Shown: piece by piece, positions 22,228 to 64,000 of the stretch | Numbering within the stretch: position 1 is the first letter of the stretch | How the letters are laid out: every line of letters starts with the position of its first letter | IMG/VR virus record: IMGVR_UViG_3300046170_000323 | DNA: 64,000 nt | Reading direction: 5' to 3' (one strand) | From: a virus | Lineage: Duplodnaviria > Caudoviricetes | Position numbers and translations under genes: made by a program | Notes under the pieces: model-generated | What the model saw: the letters and a program-made list of their open reading frames with translations, nothing else | Told to the model about the DNA's origin: nothing | The model's database searches: none

Positions 22228-22410
22228 TTATTTATATAGTTTTTTGATTTCCATCATACACGCTTTCGATTCCTCGTGCATACCCATCCTTGCGAGTTCC
22301 GAAGCCGCTCTGCTGTAACCCATCATCTGGGTATACCGATCTAAGGAAGACCACAATCCCGACAACGGTGAGAAAACATAGTTTGCTACTAATGTTGTCA
22401 TTAGACCCAC
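22228..22410 (-). CDS. Small hypothetical protein, possibly a divergent DUF1127 relative
   Basis: RAASELARMG helix motif; overlaps the DUF1127 stop. Confidence 0.6.
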   Translation of the reverse strand: MGLMTTLVANYVFSPLSGLWSSLDRYTQMMGYSRAASELARMGMHEESKACMMEIKKLYK

Positions 22411-22652
22411 CCTCTTAGATTTGTATTAACGCAGTGTTCGATTGTATCTTTTTTACGTGCGATAGAATAAATGTCGCCTCTTGAGATACCGATATCCATA
22501 AGATCTGCATCTGATAGTCTGCCGAGTGCTTTTTCAGTTTCTCGAATTGCTTTACGTTCAATTCTCCAATTTCTAAAGTCTCTGAAGGCGTTGATGATTA
22601 GTTCGATTGATCTGGTTGTATAACCATGTGCTGCTAGTATAGCTTGTGTCAT
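22401..22652 (-). CDS. DUF1127 (YjiS-like) small protein
   Basis: RETEKALGRLSDADLMDIGISRGDI is the DUF1127 signature; RBS GGAGA before ATG 22652. Confidence 0.85.
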   Translation of the reverse strand: MTQAILAAHGYTTRSIELIINAFRDFRNWRIERKAIRETEKALGRLSDADLMDIGISRGDIYSIARKKDTIEHCVNTNLRGWV

Positions 22653-22815
22653 TTTGTTCTCCAAATGTATGATAAATGTGTGTGTTAATCCGAGCGTAGG
22701 CGATCTACATTTTACTCCTTTTCCACACATTTATTTAGTACAGAAATAGGTAAATAACCCTTACCAATTTGGAATAGGCGTTATGCAAATTTGGAAAGTG
22801 TGACAACTTGTTCGC

Positions 22816-23344: not shown

Positions 23345-23794
23345 TTATTCTGTGAGAAGTTCTTCCTTCCCAGCAACTGAACCAATAGAGATCTTTCGAG
23401 GTTTCTTTTCCTCTGGGATCACATTTTCAAGTTCTACGTAAAGGATACCGTTTTGGTATTCAGCACCACGTACTACAATTGTATCCGACAAAGTAAACTT
23501 TCTACGGAACTGTCGTGCACTGATTCCTCTGTGTAGATATTGCGCTTCCGACTTTTCGTCTTTCTTACCCTCTACAGTAAGTACACCGTCCTTGACTTCA
23601 ACATCAAGTTCATCTTGGTTGAATCCGGCAAGTGCCAGTTCAATGACGTAATTATCGTCATCTACTTTGCGTATATTGTAGGGTGGGTAGTTTGGTTGAC
23701 TTGATCCTGTTTGATGCATACGATCTAGTACACGGTCAAACCCAATAAAAAATGGATCATTAAGTAAGTCGGCAGTCATTCTGCGAGTATTCAT
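23345..23794 (-). CDS. hsp20: Small heat-shock protein Hsp20
   Basis: FFIGFDR, YPPYNI, IELALAGF, YLHRGISARQFRRKFTL, NGIL. Confidence 0.95.
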   Translation of the reverse strand: MNTRRMTADLLNDPFFIGFDRVLDRMHQTGSSQPNYPPYNIRKVDDDNYVIELALAGFNQDELDVEVKDGVLTVEGKKDEKSEAQYLHRGISARQFRRKFTLSDTIVVRGAEYQNGILYVELENVIPEEKKPRKISIGSVAGKEELLTE

Positions 23795-33869: not shown

Positions 33870-34122
33870 GAGTCAAGTTGCTCCATTTTTTAAGTTTCTC
33901 ACGTTTTGCGTCTGCACATGCATCCACATTATTCCAACTAATCAAATCCCATTCGTGTAGTAAGTTCAACATACACATAAGATCACCGACTTCTGACTCC
34001 AACTTCTGATTGTTGTCATATCCAAATCGGATCATCTTTGCAGCTTCGATTGCAACCTCTGAACATTCTTCCATAAGAATAACCATCAGTTCATCACGCT
34101 CTGAAATTTTATCATTACCCAT
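33862..34122 (-). CDS. MazG-like nucleotide pyrophosphohydrolase
   Basis: LMEECSEV...LESEVGDL. Confidence 0.8.
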   Translation of the reverse strand: MGNDKISERDELMVILMEECSEVAIEAAKMIRFGYDNNQKLESEVGDLMCMLNLLHEWDLISWNNVDACADAKREKLKKWSNLTLD

Positions 34123-34126
34123 TATA

Positions 34127-34492
34127 TCACTCCCCTAAGAATTTGTCAAGCCTTGGTGGTTCCCACCCTTCTGGTTTTAGAACTTTTCCATCTTCACGTT
34201 TGCGAACCTTACCAGTATCTGGATCAATCTTCGCAAAATTTGTTTTCATAACTTCATCCCATGCACCTTGTCCATCCATACCAGCTGCACGAATTGCACC
34301 AATAGTTACAACAAGAATGTCAATCAGTGCATCTAGTTGTTCAACCCTATCGTTTAACATCACTGCGTCTTTAAGTTCACCGAATTCTTCTTCGATTAGA
34401 TCAAGATACAGTGCATAGTTTTCTGGTGACGGTTCTTGGTCACACGCATTACCAAACTTATTGATATCATCAAACAGTGACATTATATACAC
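34127..34492 (-). CDS. PRA-PH/MazG-like NTP pyrophosphatase
   Basis: LIEEEFGEL, DALIDILVV, EVMKTNFAK, DGKVLKP. Confidence 0.88.
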   Translation of the reverse strand: MYIMSLFDDINKFGNACDQEPSPENYALYLDLIEEEFGELKDAVMLNDRVEQLDALIDILVVTIGAIRAAGMDGQGAWDEVMKTNFAKIDPDTGKVRKREDGKVLKPEGWEPPRLDKFLGE

Positions 34493-37754: not shown

Positions 37755-37798
37755 AGTATAGTCCTATAATTTTTCACTTAGGATACATTATACAACTT

Positions 37799-37993
37799 TT
37801 ATGGTTGGTTGTCAACCTCTTTCTTCAGTTTATTTTCCCACGCTTCTTCGAAACCATCTAGGTGGTAAACTGTTTCGTGGTTACCCCACATTCTTCTGAA
37901 GTAACCATCATAACAATCGAACACCGTTTTTTCGTCAGCACCTAAATGGCCCTTGACTATCCAAAACATCCGATAGGCTTCTTTTCGTGTCAT
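37799..37993 (-). CDS. Hypothetical protein
   Basis: 64-aa ORF overlapping the gp46 stop. Confidence 0.7.
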   Translation of the reverse strand: MTRKEAYRMFWIVKGHLGADEKTVFDCYDGYFRRMWGNHETVYHLDGFEEAWENKLKKEVDNQP

Positions 37994-45864: not shown

Positions 45865-45907
45865 CCTCTCATTGTCTACAATTCATAATGTTCCCATTAT
45901 AACAGAT

Positions 45908-46396
45908 TTACGTGTACGTGTCAACCGTAAAGTTTGTATAACGGAATGCCACAGTCGCTTCTACGTAGTTCGTATCAGTCGCAGTGATGTCCAGTGGTAC
46001 TGAGGAGATGGAGATGGGGAAACAATCTTTGAAATTAAATTTGATGTTTGGGTTCTTGTGATTGTTGTTGAGTACAATCGTTATATCTGATTGCGTTCCT
46101 CTCTCACTCTCTTTGAGATTCTTGTATTGAGTTTGATTTTCTGGAGCGCCCATACCTTCCATCCAGTTCAGAATCTCCAAATAGTTTTTCATATCCTCAT
46201 CGACGATAAATGACATGTCGAGATCTGAATAGACCAATTGGCTTGGAGTATCATATAAGATCCCAAGTGGTGAGTTCAACTGTTGTGGGTTCCCCGACAC
46301 ATCTGGTATTGTCACTTTCTGTGTAAAGAATTCCACATTCGGAAGTCTATCGATAGAAACAAAGAATGACGTTGGAGATAAATAGTTAGTGATCAT
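45908..46396 (-). CDS. gp3: Tail completion/sheath stabiliser gp3-like
   Basis: NYLSPTSF, PNVEFFTQKVTIP, FIVDEDMKNY.EI.NW, FKDCFP; late promoter TATAAATA at 46429-46436 (-). Confidence 0.85.
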   Translation of the reverse strand: MITNYLSPTSFFVSIDRLPNVEFFTQKVTIPDVSGNPQQLNSPLGILYDTPSQLVYSDLDMSFIVDEDMKNYLEILNWMEGMGAPENQTQYKNLKESERGTQSDITIVLNNNHKNPNIKFNFKDCFPISISSVPLDITATDTNYVEATVAFRYTNFTVDTYT

Positions 46397-55706: not shown

Positions 55707-55868
55707 ATGGAATGGATTATGGCCTTTGGATTCATCTTCTTTTTGATGATCCTCTGTTTTTCCTTACTGCGTTTCGCAATAGGTTTTTTATCATGGTCTT
55801 GGCGTAATTCATTCCTAATACTTGCCAGCATTATAATCTTAATACTCCTCTTAGCTCAGCTGGATTAG
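55707..55868 (+). CDS. 53-aa two-TM membrane peptide overlapping tRNA-Arg
   Basis: Manual translation MEWIMAFGFIFFLMILCFSLLRFAIGFLSWSWRNSFLILASIIILILLLAQLD*. Confidence 0.55.
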   Translation: MEWIMAFGFIFFLMILCFSLLRFAIGFLSWSWRNSFLILASIIILILLLAQLD

Positions 55869-55922
55869 AGCATCTGCCTTCTAAGCAGAGGGTCGTAGGT
55901 TCGAGTCCTACAGAGGAGGCCA
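55845..55922 (+). tRNA. tRNA-Arg(TCT)
   Basis: Full cloverleaf, anticodon loop CTTCTAA, GTTCGAGT T-loop, encoded CCA. Confidence 0.95.
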
Positions 55923-55942
55923 ATATAAGGAAAAACAAACTC

Positions 55943-56818
55943 ATGAGTTTTGAATTCGACTTTACCAAGGAACACCTTGGGGAAATTATTTCTGCAGATG
56001 CAGATGATTGGTATGACGCACTTTGCGAACTTCTTCCAAAGTACGGTATTACAACTGAACGCAGAGTTGCACACTTCCTATCTCAGTGCGCACATGAATC
56101 TGCAGGTTTTAAGAGACTAGAAGAAAATTTAAACTACTCTGCAAAGGCTCTACGTGCCGTCTTTGGTAGATACTTCGGCGCATCTCCAAAACGTGATGCA
56201 GACGAGTATCACAGACAACCAGAGATGATTGCAAATTATGTGTACATGGACGAGTTCCGTAAATACAAAATGGGCAATGTCAACGAGGGTGACGGATGGT
56301 TATTCAGAGGCCGAGGCTTGAAACAGTTGACTGGCCGTGAGAACTATACACGCTTTGGTAAAACTGTAGATATGACTGCAGAAGAAGCGGCAGTGTACGT
56401 TGCAACACCAGCGGGTGCAATTGAAAGCGCATGTTGGTTCTGGGACGCAAATAATCTAAACGATATTGCCGATGGTGATGACGTTAAGAAAATGACGAAA
56501 AAAATTAATGGTGGATCTATTGGCTTGGATGATCGTAAGAAACGTTACATGCACGCTATGGAAGTTCTAGGAATGGACGCAGAAGATCTCGCTGCAGATG
56601 ATGATGACATCGAAGATATCATTGACGATATTGGTGTACTACGTAAAGGTGCAAAAGGCGATGGAGTCAAACTGATGCAAGAAGCATTGGGTATTGGTGC
56701 AGACGGAGACTTTGGGCCAGGCACAGAACGTGCATTGAAAAAATGGCAGTCAGACAATGGATTGACTGCTGATGGTATCGCAGGGCCAGCAACCCTTGCA
56801 AAACTGTTTGACGACTAG
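55943..56818 (+). CDS. GH19 endolysin with C-terminal peptidoglycan-binding domain
   Basis: FLSQCAHESAGF, ENLNYS, FRGRGLKQLTGRENY, INGG; LQ...ADGDFGPGTE..LKKWQ...L.ADGIAGP. Confidence 0.92.
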   Translation: MSFEFDFTKEHLGEIISADADDWYDALCELLPKYGITTERRVAHFLSQCAHESAGFKRLEENLNYSAKALRAVFGRYFGASPKRDADEYHRQPEMIANYVYMDEFRKYKMGNVNEGDGWLFRGRGLKQLTGRENYTRFGKTVDMTAEEAAVYVATPAGAIESACWFWDANNLNDIADGDDVKKMTKKINGGSIGLDDRKKRYMHAMEVLGMDAEDLAADDDDIEDIIDDIGVLRKGAKGDGVKLMQEALGIGADGDFGPGTERALKKWQSDNGLTADGIAGPATLAKLFDD

Positions 56819-56825
56819 TCGTCAA

Positions 56826-56873
56826 GAAGGGGCGACATCTCCTTTCTCTTACAACTTACAATGTCGCCCCTTC
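56826..56873 (+). ncRNA. 13-bp hairpin with 22-nt CU-rich loop; candidate antisense sRNA
   Basis: GAAGGGGCGACAT / ATGTCGCCCCTTC perfect stem; loop CTCCTTTCTCTTACAACTTACA complements early-gene leaders. Confidence 0.55.
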
Positions 56874-56879
56874 ACTTTA

Positions 56880-56956
56880 CTCAGTGTAGGTCAGTCTGGT
56901 AGACCGCTACGTTTGGGACGTAGATGTCGTTGGTTCAAATCCAGCCACTGAGACCA
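56880..56956 (+). tRNA. tRNA-Pro(TGG)
   Basis: Cloverleaf, anticodon loop TTTGGGA, CCA end. Confidence 0.95.
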
Positions 56957-56958
56957 AT

Positions 56959-57032
56959 AGGAGTGAAGTGTTATGGAAGCACGTTGGATTCCAAATCCAA
57001 AAGCTGGGGTTCGACTCCCTGCACTCCTGCCA
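56959..57032 (+). tRNA. tRNA-Trp(CCA)
   Basis: Cloverleaf, anticodon loop TTCCAAA, CCA end. Confidence 0.93.
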
Positions 57033-57051
57033 GATTTAATGAATAAATAGT

Positions 57052-57195
57052 ATGACAACAGATCACGAAATTACAATGTTTCTACATTTCTGGGCAAGAA
57101 GGGGAATACCTCTCCCAGATCCAACCCACTACCCTAATTCTTTTATGTGGTATGTGAAGATGTATAGGTACTATCAAAATGACAAAGTTAAGTGA
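57052..57195 (+). CDS. 47-aa hypothetical protein
   Basis: LPDPTHYPNSFMWYVKMYRYY; late-type AATAAATA at about 57042 upstream. Confidence 0.65.
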   Translation: MTTDHEITMFLHFWARRGIPLPDPTHYPNSFMWYVKMYRYYQNDKVK

Positions 57196-58150
57196 CGAAG
57201 AACTCGCACATGTAAGAAAATATGGCCCACCATTGGAAGATCCAGTAATAGAGAATTACTTGGATAAGACAGGTCTCAGTAATCCAGACGAAGAGACACG
57301 TGAGACAAAAGTAAAACATCTGCAGTATGGTCTTGACATGGATCAAGAAGTAATACGCAGGGCACAAAAGTGCCAGAGAAATTGGAATTACACCAGAGAC
57401 ATCAATTCATCAGTACGAGATCATCTCCTATGGATTGCACAAAATGCACCTTCGAAACAACACGAAGGTTTTTATGACGTTTACTGGTCAGAAGATAGGG
57501 ACACAATTCAAGAGATGTCCCGATACACTTGGGGATGTACTCACAGTAGAACCCCACCATCAACTTGGAGAAACGCACAAGCAAATGCAAACATGTATAT
57601 TTTGTTTGTTGCGAAAGAACCGTCAGGACAAGAAAACTGTCATGTGGATGGATCCTTAAAAGAAAACAATCGCCCAGAACGTTGGGAAAATGCATATGTC
57701 TCTATTGGTATTGCCATGGGGATGATCTTGTTTACTGCGAACCAATTAGGTCTACAGACTGGGTGTAATAAAAGTCACGGTGATTTTGATGGTGATGATT
57801 ATTTTGAAAACAAACTTGGTATCCTTGAGGATGTCAGAGCTGGTAAGAAAAGAATTGCGTATGGGATGGGTATCGGTTATGGTCAAGATGGTAGACCAAG
57901 ATACGAAACAGATGAAACAGAGATTGCGCTTGGGGCGGGAAATGGTGACACACTCACTGAATATCCAGACATGGGAACTCATCCAACAACAGGCAAAGAG
58001 TTCAGACGTGTTAAGGTTGTAGATACCACAGAAATGGGTGGACAGGAAGTAACTGATCACTACGGTAACGTGCACACCGTTCCACACGACTCTAACATAA
58101 AGATTAACACGATGCGCCCACGTGACATCAAGATTATTGAAATAGAATGA
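57179..58150 (+). CDS. Nitroreductase-fold protein
   Basis: RRAQKCQRNW, NAPSKQ, SIGIAMG...ANQLGLQTGC. Confidence 0.8.
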   Translation: MTKLSDEELAHVRKYGPPLEDPVIENYLDKTGLSNPDEETRETKVKHLQYGLDMDQEVIRRAQKCQRNWNYTRDINSSVRDHLLWIAQNAPSKQHEGFYDVYWSEDRDTIQEMSRYTWGCTHSRTPPSTWRNAQANANMYILFVAKEPSGQENCHVDGSLKENNRPERWENAYVSIGIAMGMILFTANQLGLQTGCNKSHGDFDGDDYFENKLGILEDVRAGKKRIAYGMGIGYGQDGRPRYETDETEIALGAGNGDTLTEYPDMGTHPTTGKEFRRVKVVDTTEMGGQEVTDHYGNVHTVPHDSNIKINTMRPRDIKIIEIE

Positions 58151-58758
58151 CAGATATAAAAAGCATTGTAGACAGAAGTCAGATATGTACTAGGAACTGG
58201 GATCACTCAAAGACGATTCCAGAAGAACATATTGATATCTTTTTACACGCATTGCAGAACTGTCCAAGTAAACAGAACTTCGCCTTCTATAAAATTCATC
58301 TGATTACAGATAAAGAGATGCAGGCGCAGATCTTAGAAGAGACAAGGATCTTCACATTACCAAATGGTGTGACTGTTACTAATAGTCAAAACATGGCAAA
58401 TATTCTTATTGTGTTTGAGAAACCAAACTACAGTGATACCATGTTGAAGAGGAATGAAAAGTATACTTGGTTCAACACCCAACCAGAGTGGGAACTCGAC
58501 AGAGATTCGTGGATGAACATTGGTGTTGCGGCTGGATACTTGAATTACATTGCACATTCCCTTGGTTATGAAACAGGGTATTGTGCAGGTCTGCATCAAG
58601 AGAATGTTAAAAATATAATTGGTTGTGAAAACAATATTGAACTCATGATGGGAATAGGTTTTAGGGATATGGAACTGGATCAAAGAGATCATCACTTTGG
58701 TGAAGGCAGGTTCCCCCACTACAGAAAAGAACCTATCATCGTAGAACGACATGAGTGA
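58147..58758 (+). CDS. Nitroreductase-fold protein (paralog)
   Basis: RSQICTRNWD, NCPSKQN, IGVAAGYL...AHSLGYETGYC. Confidence 0.85.
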   Translation: MTDIKSIVDRSQICTRNWDHSKTIPEEHIDIFLHALQNCPSKQNFAFYKIHLITDKEMQAQILEETRIFTLPNGVTVTNSQNMANILIVFEKPNYSDTMLKRNEKYTWFNTQPEWELDRDSWMNIGVAAGYLNYIAHSLGYETGYCAGLHQENVKNIIGCENNIELMMGIGFRDMELDQRDHHFGEGRFPHYRKEPIIVERHE

Positions 58759-59477
58759 TTATGTTCACGTTAGGGAAGGACACGATGTCTATCCGTTCTT
58801 CAAAGAACTTTTCCCTGACTATCAACCCACAGAAAAGGTTTTAGACTTTGGCGGTAATAGGGGAAATTTACTTTATCACTCTAGTGGTGGAATTACAGAC
58901 CATAATTATACATCTATTGACGTAAGTACTACGGCGCTCGAATTGGGCAAACAGGACTTTCCAAACGCAACATTTATTCATAACAATAAATGGAACTGGA
59001 TGTACAATCCAAAAGGTGTTGAGTTACCTCACTACTGGCCTCTACAGAAGAAGTTTCCAGAGGTTGATTATAAACAGGACTACATCTTTGCATACAGTGT
59101 ATTCACTCATACTGATCTAACTGAGTTTGTTGAGACTTTAGAGTGGTTAAATTGGTTTGATTTCAAAAAACTGGCAGTGAGTGTCTTAGACATCAACAGG
59201 GATGAGATCCACAAATTCTTTTACGATAAAAGGGATAGAGGATTACGGGCATTGTGTTGACCTATCAGAGATGAAAGGTAAAAACATTGCATACCTCTAC
59301 AACAACGAGACAATCTTATACGACAAGATTAGTGCATACAAATTAGATGTTCAACACTTCTTGTCACTATATAACATAGACTTTTTGGTGGAGACGTTGG
59401 GTGAGTATGGATTCAATGTTACAATCGAAAAGCCAGGCAAAGGAATCATTCCTTTTGTCTGCATGGAAAAAAAATAA
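58751..59477 (+). CDS. Class I SAM-dependent methyltransferase (indel near 59240)
   Basis: KVLDFGGNRG, SIDVS, DYIFAYSVFTH. Confidence 0.85.
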
Positions 59478-59497
59478 AAAAAGTTTAATTTAACGCT

Positions 59498-59525
59498 TGC
59501 CTTTTGAGGCAACAAGTGTTATATT
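59498..59525 (+). promoter_or_regulatory. Early-type promoter driving the ncRNA/tRNA block
   Basis: TTGCCT-N16-TATATT, followed by GGTAAG like the other early leaders. Confidence 0.7.
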
Positions 59526-59530
59526 AACAA

Positions 59531-59772
59531 GGTAAGACACAGTGAGTGGTTGTCGACTCCCCCATGCTGAAGTATGGAAAACGACTTTAAGAGATCTGTT
59601 GTCTGTGGTAGCCTGTGCCACGTTAGAAAATAAGACGGGCCGATATTAAAGCAGTACCAAGAGATAGTGAGTTGCTGAACAGAAGTTGACTGTAAAAGAT
59701 TGCAGAAGGTCAACTACTCAACTTGAGGGTCACTCTAATTTACTGCACGTTTGATCGTGGTGTTGATCAAAC
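59531..59772 (+). ncRNA. Unassigned multi-stem structured RNA upstream of tRNA-Gly
   Basis: No ORF; nested stems GCAGTA/TACTGC, AGTGA/TCACT, AGTTGAC/GTCAACT, GTGGTA/TGCCAC, TTTGATC/GATCAAA. Confidence 0.55.
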
Positions 59773-59776
59773 ACAT

Positions 59777-59850
59777 GCGGATGTCGTATAGTGGCATTAC
59801 CTCAGATTTCCAATCTGATGATGAGGGTTCGATTCCTTCCGTCCGCTCCA
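59777..59850 (+). tRNA. tRNA-Gly(TCC)
   Basis: Cloverleaf GCGGATG..., anticodon loop TTTCCAA, CCA end. Confidence 0.95.
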
Positions 59851-63245: not shown

Positions 63246-63257
63246 TATTTATAAATA
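63246..63257. promoter_or_regulatory. Palindromic bidirectional late promoter
   Basis: TATTTATAAATA contains TATAAATA on both strands. Confidence 0.6.
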
Positions 63258-63270
63258 GTCTTATTGGGTA

Positions 63271-63299
63271 TTGACAAGTATAAAAAAATGTCGTATAAT
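63271..63299 (+). promoter_or_regulatory. Sigma70-type promoter upstream of the tmRNA operon
   Basis: TTGACA-N17-TATAAT perfect consensus. Confidence 0.85.
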
Positions 63300-63330: not shown

Positions 63331-63504
63331 ATGTGGTTGTTAACACTAATTGCACTCGAACCTGTGGATGGTCATGTTTTGAATCCACATAAGATTTTAG
63401 GTTTCAAAGATGAAGAATCTTGTAAGGCTGTTTCCTCTATGGATGCAGTCTATGTAGACGGTGTTTACTGGAAGGTAGACGCACCCTGTTTAGATGTTTC
63501 ATAG
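63331..63504 (+). CDS. 57-aa hypothetical protein
   Basis: Manual translation MWLLTLIALEPVDG...EESC...APCLDVS*. Confidence 0.55.
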   Translation: MWLLTLIALEPVDGHVLNPHKILGFKDEESCKAVSSMDAVYVDGVYWKVDAPCLDVS

Positions 63505-63516
63505 AAGGAAGATTAG

Positions 63517-63705
63517 ATGCAGAGAAATAGTAGACTACCAAGAAAACCTATGAACTCTGGTGATGAGTGGGATGTGTTAACTGACGCACGTGAGTTCTAC
63601 TGTTATACACAAAGATCTAAAGTTTGCAAAAAGATCAAGAAAGCGTATAACAAAAAAGAACGCAAATGGTTAAACAAAGAATTCTTAGTCGTGGACATGG
63701 ACTAA
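63517..63705 (+). CDS. Hypothetical protein
   Basis: SGDEWDVLT..R...KKIKKAYNKKER. Confidence 0.75.
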   Translation: MQRNSRLPRKPMNSGDEWDVLTDAREFYCYTQRSKVCKKIKKAYNKKERKWLNKEFLVVDMD

Positions 63706-63974
63706 GTAAAGATGTAATTGTTGAAGCAAAGCGAATACGAACTGGACTGGGGGGCAGTACCCCACAGCTCCACCACAAACACATTTACTGAGTGTGTTTT
63801 TGATGGGGGCTGAACTAGGATCGACAGGCGGGCTAGTTGAGTGGAGATTACCGTGGTGACCTACGTTATTCGGTCAAAAACTATAAGTGCAAATGATAAT
63901 TTCGCACCATCTGAGTTACGCCTAGCAGCGTAGCCGCAGGGGGTATGGGTTCCACCTAGCAACAGAAAGGGCCC
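63706..63974 (+). ncRNA. ssrA: Circularly permuted (two-piece) tmRNA
   Basis: Acceptor piece ...GGGGGCAGTACCCCACAGCTCCACCA (ends 63775); hairpin spacer; coding piece GGGGCTG (63806); tag frame 63889-63933 ANDNFAPSELRLAA*. Confidence 0.93.
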
Positions 63975-64000
63975 GTTTTACGTTTGGCATAAATATTTTG

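Follow-up and report, generated by a model that had tools for sequence, protein, structure and literature searches.

A complete circularly permuted tmRNA gene of the alpha type occupies positions 63713-63977 (+) of the window, that is, of the whole 64-kb stretch of viral DNA that was analysed. tmRNA frees ribosomes that have stalled and tags the incomplete protein for degradation. Upstream of the gene lie two small open reading frames and a sigma-70-type promoter. The features of the locus are listed below, with their basis in brackets; G001 is the nearest related contig.

63250-63257 (+): TATAAATA, a box resembling T4-type late promoters, just upstream of the sigma-70-type promoter (tentative)
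63271-63299 (+): perfect sigma-70-type promoter TTGACA-17 nt-TATAAT, 12 of 12 consensus positions, identical in G001
63331-63504 (+): small ORF of 57 amino acids, no family match
63517-63705 (+): small basic ORF of 62 amino acids, its end 8 nt upstream of the tmRNA gene; Pfam and PHROG gave no match
63713-63775 (+): acceptor piece (Rfam alignment and pair list)
63714-63718, 63738-63740 and 63742-63744 (+): 3' strands of P2 (Rfam alignment and pair list)
63748-63764 (+): T-arm, 63748-63752 paired with 63760-63764, 5 bp (pair list)
63765-63771 (+): 3' strand of the acceptor stem (pair list)
63772 and 63773-63775 (+): discriminator A, then the encoded CCA (pair list)
63776-63805 (+): intervening segment of 30 nt, no ORF inside (sequence reading and pair list)
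63777-63783 and 63793-63799 (+): spacer hairpin AAACACA/UGUGUUU (pair list)
63806-63977 (+): coding piece, the RF01849 alignment extending to 63977
63806-63812 (+): 5' strand of the acceptor stem, GGGGCUG
63813-63824 (+): single-stranded AACUAGGAUCGA
63825-63830 and 63847-63851 (+): 5' strands of P2
63852-63876 (+): pseudoknot PK1, stem 1 CGUG/UACG, stem 2 UGACC/GGUCA
63889-63933 (+): tag frame, GCA resume codon, ANDNFAPSELRLAA encoded by 63889-63930, stop codon UAG at 63931-63933
63915-63934 (+): predicted P5 hairpin enclosing the stop codon (minimum-energy fold only)
63941-63974 (+): 3' pseudoknot, GGGU/ACCU and GGGUUC/GGGCCC around the conserved AGCAACAGAA loop

The order of the elements is permuted: the CCA end at 63775 is followed by the spacer (63776-63805), by GGGGCUG starting at 63806 and then by the tag frame. 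The acceptor stem comprises seven base pairs, 63765-63771 with 63806-63812, and contains G63808:U63769, which corresponds to G3:U70. The G3:U70 pair and an A discriminator constitute the alanine identity. The T-loop is the 7-nt sequence GGCAGUA (63753-63759). A UUGAUG leader lies between the spacer hairpin and G1, and spacers of this kind, a stem plus UGAU, recur among alpha-type genes, in many viral and in some bacterial ones. Within P2, the P2a helix CUG/CAG is formed by 63742-63744 and 63825-63827, and the outer helix GUAAU/AUUAC by 63714-63718 and 63847-63851. The middle part, P2b, is weak, with a mismatch of A63740 and G63828 and two non-standard pairs in the next helix of the Rfam model. 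Stem 2 of PK1 ends 12 nt upstream of the GCA resume codon. The tag, read directly and by script, is the same in G001. About 45 positions of the RF01849 model that follow the stop codon are absent from the gene.

A sequence-only reading of this region had proposed a phage-encoded circularly permuted tmRNA with an intact degron tag, and all the elements it listed are indeed present. The acceptor piece ends in CUCCACCA with its last base at 63775, the spacer contains the hairpin AAACACA/UGUGUUU, the coding piece begins with GGGGCTG, and the tag, ANDNFAPSELRLAA followed by the UAG stop codon, is of the ANDN...LAA type. The T-loop is also there; however, it had been given as GCAGTAC, one base off register.

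The identity of the gene is established by covariance models. In Infernal searches with Rfam 15, the gene matched the tmRNA_permuted model RF04321 with 115.2 bits (gathering threshold 47, E-value 9e-22, model positions 1-213 of 213) and the alpha_tmRNA model RF01849 with 103.2 bits (gathering threshold 50, E-value 4.5e-27, model positions 1-355 of 355). Both matches are full length and not truncated, and both scores are far beyond chance. ARAGORN, the other program proposed for checking the gene, gave a mixed result: at default thresholds it missed the gene, whereas at lowered thresholds it called it "permuted" but mis-parsed the tag. The identification is therefore based on Infernal. Since ARAGORN misses the gene by default, surveys based on this program undercount such genes.

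A motif scan of IMG/VR yielded at least 120 viral contigs with alpha-type permuted tmRNA, at least 75 of them with readable ANDN...AA tags. Pairing was counted by script in the window and its 40 nearest viral relatives among the matches listed (41 rows), the MAFFT alignment being poor over the P5 hairpin and stem 1 of PK1. All 41 rows have standard pairs in the T-arm, in P2a and at those acceptor positions that are correctly aligned, and a single position shows up to four pair types. Three positions of the T-arm show two to four pair types, P2a covaries, and G3:U70 is invariant (41/41). In the outer P2 helix GUAAU/AUUAC, 33-38 of 38 rows show standard pairs at four positions, with three to six pair types. 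Stem 2 of PK1 forms at equal spacing in the relatives as UGACC/GGUCA, UGAUC/GAUCA, UGGUC/GACCA, UGACU/GGUCA and UGAAC/GUUCA; the stem has four compensatory variants and covaries across the relatives.

The tmRNA genes of the window (63713-63977) and G001 are 98% identical. Five of the nine differences fall inside the 30-nt spacer, which indicates that the spacer is under relaxed constraint. The sole change in the acceptor stem is compensatory: C5:G of the window is replaced by A5:U in G001, so that GGGGCUG/CAGCUCC becomes GGGGAUG/CAUCUCC. In the 3' helix GGGCCC becomes GGGCCU, a C-to-U change that preserves pairing as G-U. This pair of strains provides the most direct evidence of selection on the structure.

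The viral genes differ from the cellular ones. With RF01849 the cellular gene was detected in 149 of the 151 alphaproteobacterial genomes sampled (the tally includes one unpublished genome, G043, whose sequence was not used and on which the comparison does not rest), and nearly all full-length cellular matches in these genomes score 160-313 bits. In contrast, the phage copies, namely those of the window (63644-63977), of G001, of phage Melnitz and of the Sinorhizobium phage Phosso, score 103-108 bits. An unrooted maximum-likelihood tree was constructed from 160 rows, which were picked by motif and similarity. In this tree 59 of the 60 bacterial rows fall into one group together with only two viral contigs (support 91/56). 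The sixtieth, on a long branch, is probably a bad extraction. About 95 viral rows lie outside the bacterial group, and the window is among them, in a viral radiation with little internal resolution. Its closest neighbour shifts between trees: Phosso (99/95), the group of L013 and L024, or Phosso with L008 and L056 (80/88). A sister relationship of the window and Phosso was considered but is not claimed, as the placement moved once rows had been added. Thus the comparison with cellular tmRNAs suggested by the sequence-only reading places the window gene among viral rows and outside the bacterial group, but the nearest neighbour is unstable.

The low RF01849 score raises the possibility that the tmRNA gene was once captured and is now decaying, with no function left. 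The missing block past the stop codon and the imperfect pairing of the middle part of P2 would agree with decay, as would the rejection by ARAGORN at default settings and the patchy distribution of the gene, the phage nearest by DNA polymerase being devoid of it. On the other hand, the copies of Melnitz and Phosso score alike, at about 107 bits, and therefore the low score is a trait of the family rather than a sign of decay. All identity elements and the tag frame are intact, the helices covary across a large viral family with the same reduced architecture, and, between two strains, the acceptor stem has changed in a compensatory way whereas the spacer is free to vary. Decay is thus a very unlikely explanation, and from its sequence the window tmRNA looks functional.

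The window encodes T4-type proteins, including baseplate wedge and hub proteins (gp6- and gp5-type), a gp43-type DNA polymerase, a gp46-type SbcC-like nuclease subunit and a gp41-type helicase, as well as an endolysin and four tRNAs. The tRNA genes (Arg-TCT, Pro-TGG, Trp-CCA and Gly-TCC) are located at 55845-59850 (+), a few kb upstream of the tmRNA gene, and are interleaved with the endolysin gene (55943-56818). No near-identical phages were found in GenBank, and the closest DNA polymerase, that of C48C1, is only about 45% identical. No alpha_tmRNA match was found in C48C1. The phage is an uncultured T4-like myophage, with an inferred genome size of roughly 210 kb.

G001 (IMGVR_UViG_3300006990_000013) is an independent T4-like contig from IMG/VR, 117,770 bp in length. 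Its tmRNA gene is internal, at about 52.3-52.7 kb, with phage-type genes on both sides. On the 3' side, genes for radical-SAM, carbamoyltransferase, aminotransferase and cytidylyltransferase proteins are followed by nrdA/nrdB; the sugar-metabolism genes here are auxiliary. A long block of genes modifying sugars and nucleotide sugars spans 57-112 kb of G001, after the tmRNA region and before nrdAB (L002 12121-18228; L161; L162). It contains two radical-SAM genes, at least two genes of Nol-like carbamoyltransferases, an aminotransferase gene and a gene for a 1351-aa protein with a cytidylyltransferase domain. Among the matches listed, the nearest relatives of the tmRNA gene also reside in T4-like or other phage contexts: the copy in L069 adjoins the gp43 and gp44 clamp loader genes, and L024 carries a virion protein gene. 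The position of the tmRNA gene varies among the genomes of the relatives, and it is an accessory gene with a patchy distribution.

This context bears on whether the stretch could be host DNA, that is, an assembly chimera at the contig end, which the sequence-only reading had named as a concern, a prophage flank, or an attP fragment left by integration into ssrA. The feature does lie at the extreme end of the 64-kb window, and many temperate elements integrate into ssrA, carrying fragments of it (PMC9004378, PMC11915505). However, the end of the window is not the end of the contig, and the corresponding locus of G001, 98% identical, is internal. The gene is complete and not a fragment, no tyrosine integrase was found in G001, and the G+C content is even over the region, at about 0.40-0.43. 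Given the internal copy, the phage contexts, the even composition and the lack of an integrase in G001, the chimeric origin fails. The tag points the same way: the pattern formed by its first ten residues, ANDNFAPSEL, had no matches in 185,579 species-representative genomes. In BLAST searches against 401 evenly sampled Alphaproteobacteria only short patches of the tRNA-like domain were matched, with at most 57 bits, as against 178 bits for the best non-identical viral contig among the matches listed. An origin of the stretch from host DNA is extremely unlikely, and the gene is a resident of the phage genome.

A relaxed pattern, ANDNFAP-x(2-4)-RLAA, matched only three metagenome-assembled genomes. 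One of these matches is on a 19-kb contig binned as Verrucomicrobiales and carrying a phage-type tmRNA. On this contig, NYWG01000075.1 (L124 / L126), the short phage-type alpha tmRNA scores 88 bits and has the tag ANDNFAPEMRLAA; the promoter is located directly upstream of the tmRNA, and the spacer hairpin is the one seen in a large number of viral contigs. Mis-binning of a phage contig is the probable explanation.

The alpha-type tmRNA had been taken to point to an alphaproteobacterial host. This is plausible, and such a host is favoured because an alpha-type tmRNA must suit the AlaRS, SmpB, RNase P and proteases of the host. However, it is only a lead, since Melnitz, which has an alpha-type two-piece ssrA, infects OM43, a host outside the Alphaproteobacteria (PMC9004378). 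In addition, no close bacterial tmRNA was found among those sampled. Two genes of the host-physiology type, encoding a DUF1127 protein (27.6 bits, cut-off 23.3) and an Hsp20 protein (76.6 bits), were observed in the window at 22401-22730 (-) and 23345-23794 (-), respectively. DUF1127 is common in Alpha- and Gammaproteobacteria, and the two genes hint at a proteobacterial host. Overall, we consider an alphaproteobacterial host of the phage moderately probable.

The perfect sigma-70-type promoter noted in the sequence-only reading is real, matching the consensus in all 12 positions, but 413 nt separate its end (63299) from the start of the RNA (63713), a stretch that holds the two small ORFs. 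No better promoter was found between 63299 and the RNA. Since two ORFs intervene and there is no better promoter nearer to the gene, processing of the RNA out of a longer early transcript is probable, and the site at 63271-63299 is the probable early promoter of a unit consisting of the 57-aa ORF, the 62-aa ORF and the tmRNA. Perfect TTGACA-N17-TATAAT sites occur four times in the 64-kb window, compared to 0.08 expected, at 34121-34149 (-), 37787-37815 (-), 45896-45924 (-) and 63271-63299 (+). Such a number is in keeping with the strong early promoters that T4-like phages have, and the phage thus appears to use consensus-strength sigma-70-type early promoters. The TATAAATA box could be a late promoter; it has eight copies in the window versus 3.4 expected, a weak enrichment, as one of 100 shuffles reaches eight.

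The 62-aa ORF is likely a real gene, as a count by hand shows five of its seven changes relative to G001 to be synonymous. A linked gene for an RNA-binding partner was considered and dropped: the flanking ORFs belong to no Pfam or PHROG family, and no relatives of them were seen next to other viral tmRNAs. The sequence-only reading had proposed to look for smpB in the rest of the genome; a search of the 118 kb of G001 found none, and therefore the RNA presumably works with the SmpB of the host, with which it would have to be compatible to function.

Two-piece tmRNAs in marine T4-like phages have already been published, and the window gene is a further, divergent example. The ssrA of Melnitz and of related marine myophages is in two pieces and lies behind an early promoter (Buchholz et al. 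2022, PMC9004378); we examined the Melnitz record and verified a two-piece ssrA of the alpha type. Among 18,146 phage genomes, the authors identified 402 phages with a total of 133 unique tmRNAs; 53 of these were two-piece, and marine or aquatic phages accounted for 50 of the 53. Within the Melnitz cluster, 17 of 47 contigs carried one (PMC9004378). The tmRNA database of 2025, which is the source of the RF04321 model, contains 79 unique phage tmRNAs (PMC11915505). Phages of Bradyrhizobium elkanii have tmRNA genes too (PMC12656738).

The window shares with Melnitz and pelagimyophages a T4-like (Kyanoviridae-type) myophage context, a tag of the ANDN...LAA type and an upstream sigma-70-type promoter. 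The RF04321 and RF01849 scores are similar (113 and 107 bits in Melnitz, 115 and 103 bits in the window), the spacer is closed by a stem and ends in ...UGAU before G1, and in both cases the gene is accessory and patchy. On the other hand, the two genes are only about 73% identical, over 145 nt, the genome neighbourhood is different, and in the window two small ORFs intervene between promoter and RNA. The Melnitz gene is followed by a glutamine riboswitch (52.8 bits), whereas no match to RF01739 with an E-value of 1 or below was found in the 1.3 kb downstream of the tmRNA in G001; the riboswitch does not define the Melnitz group, in which it is not universal (PMC9004378). The Melnitz spacer is about 145 nt long (L158 1370-1510), versus 30 nt without an ORF in the window. 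It seems to hold an ORF that starts with ATG and runs into the coding piece.

The best DNA match in an isolated phage is to Phosso, a jumbo phage of Sinorhizobium (PV764938.1), with 76% identity over two pieces. The sequences of the T-arm and acceptor and of the 3' pseudoknot are nearly identical, the scores are 113 and 108 bits, and Phosso groups near the window in trees, with unstable support (99/95 and 80/88; apart in a third tree). However, Phosso is a 469-kb soil jumbo phage that is not T4-like, its tag is different, and its spacer is about 400 nt (L159 1533-1940) compared to 30 nt in the window. The Phosso tmRNA lacks annotation in the GenBank record.

Cellular two-piece tmRNA was reportedly described in Caulobacter by Keiler, Shapiro and Williams in 2000. 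The window gene agrees with the cellular alpha tmRNAs (RF01849) in the permutation, the tRNA-like domain with a GGCnGUA T-loop, the UAGGAUCGAC motif, PK1, the tag start ANDN and the GCAACAGAA motif in the 3' pseudoknot. Unlike them, it is encoded by a virus with no smpB in the 118 kb of G001, lacks the post-stop segment of about 45 model positions and scores 103 bits versus 160-313. The one-piece tmRNAs of mycobacteriophages (cluster C, DS6A) and of other phages in the database are also phage-borne and rely on the host SmpB, but their gene order is not permuted, they originate from another bacterial lineage, and their tags are different.

We consider it very probable that the window gene is a genuine two-piece alpha-type tmRNA of an uncultured T4-like myophage, which is processed and works with host factors in ribosome rescue. 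Under this reading, a single precursor would be transcribed, likely from the early promoter at 63271-63299, through the two small ORFs. RNase P would cleave before G63806, the 3' end of the acceptor piece would be trimmed to the encoded CCA at 63775, and the 30-nt spacer would be lost. The two resulting RNAs would be held together by the acceptor stem and the P2 helices. The host AlaRS would charge the molecule via G3:U70 and the A discriminator, and the host SmpB and EF-Tu would deliver it to ribosomes stalled on broken mRNAs. Translation would then resume at GCA 63889 and add ANDNFAPSELRLAA, whose C-terminal LAA would direct the product to ClpXP-type proteolysis. The most likely gain for the phage would be that rescue capacity and amino-acid recycling are sustained during degradation of host RNA and transcription shut-off. 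The roles proposed earlier for phage tmRNAs are upkeep of the hijacked translation machinery and tagging of proteins for amino-acid recycling (PMC9004378).

A functional RNA could, instead of simply adding rescue capacity, compete with or replace the host tmRNA, re-routing or re-tagging its substrates, or it could counteract nucleases that cut tmRNA, tRNA or mRNA. In the searches, no species-representative bacterial genome matched the middle of the tag, PSELR, and the consensus-strength sigma-70-type promoter suggests early and strong expression. Further, a passage of the tmRNA database paper reports that a tmRNA of mycobacteriophage DS6A devoid of a coding sequence inhibits the endogenous tmRNA in E. 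coli (PMC11915505). However, the tag conforms to the standard alpha pattern both where it starts (ANDNFA) and where it ends (LAA), and the locus has neither a nuclease inhibitor nor smpB, so that nothing in it points to a specialised role. In Caulobacter these tag ends are the regions contacted by SspB-alpha and ClpX. Such competition or counter-defence is quite improbable as the main function, and the counter-defence motive is pure speculation. Rescue of stalled ribosomes with the aid of host factors is thus the preferred role.

For the annotation of this phage the gain is a real structured RNA gene. Both the phenomenon and the speculative roles proposed for it have been published before, and no new question is opened. 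As the tag is distinct from the sampled host tags, proteomics could separate tagging driven by the phage from that driven by the host, provided that a host has been cultured. The separation of phage and cellular genes in both score and tree is the one point that goes slightly past the literature, and it is suggestive. Possibly, although we lean somewhat against it, the phage alpha-type tmRNAs represent one or a few old phage-resident lineages with a reduced architecture that were passed among unrelated phages, and not repeated captures from hosts. These phages may include marine T4-like myophages, the soil jumbo phage of Sinorhizobium and others. If this were true, an alpha-type ssrA would tell little about the present host of a phage. 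With the gene described here, one more divergent lineage supports the view that large marine phages possess a ribosome-rescue RNA of their own.
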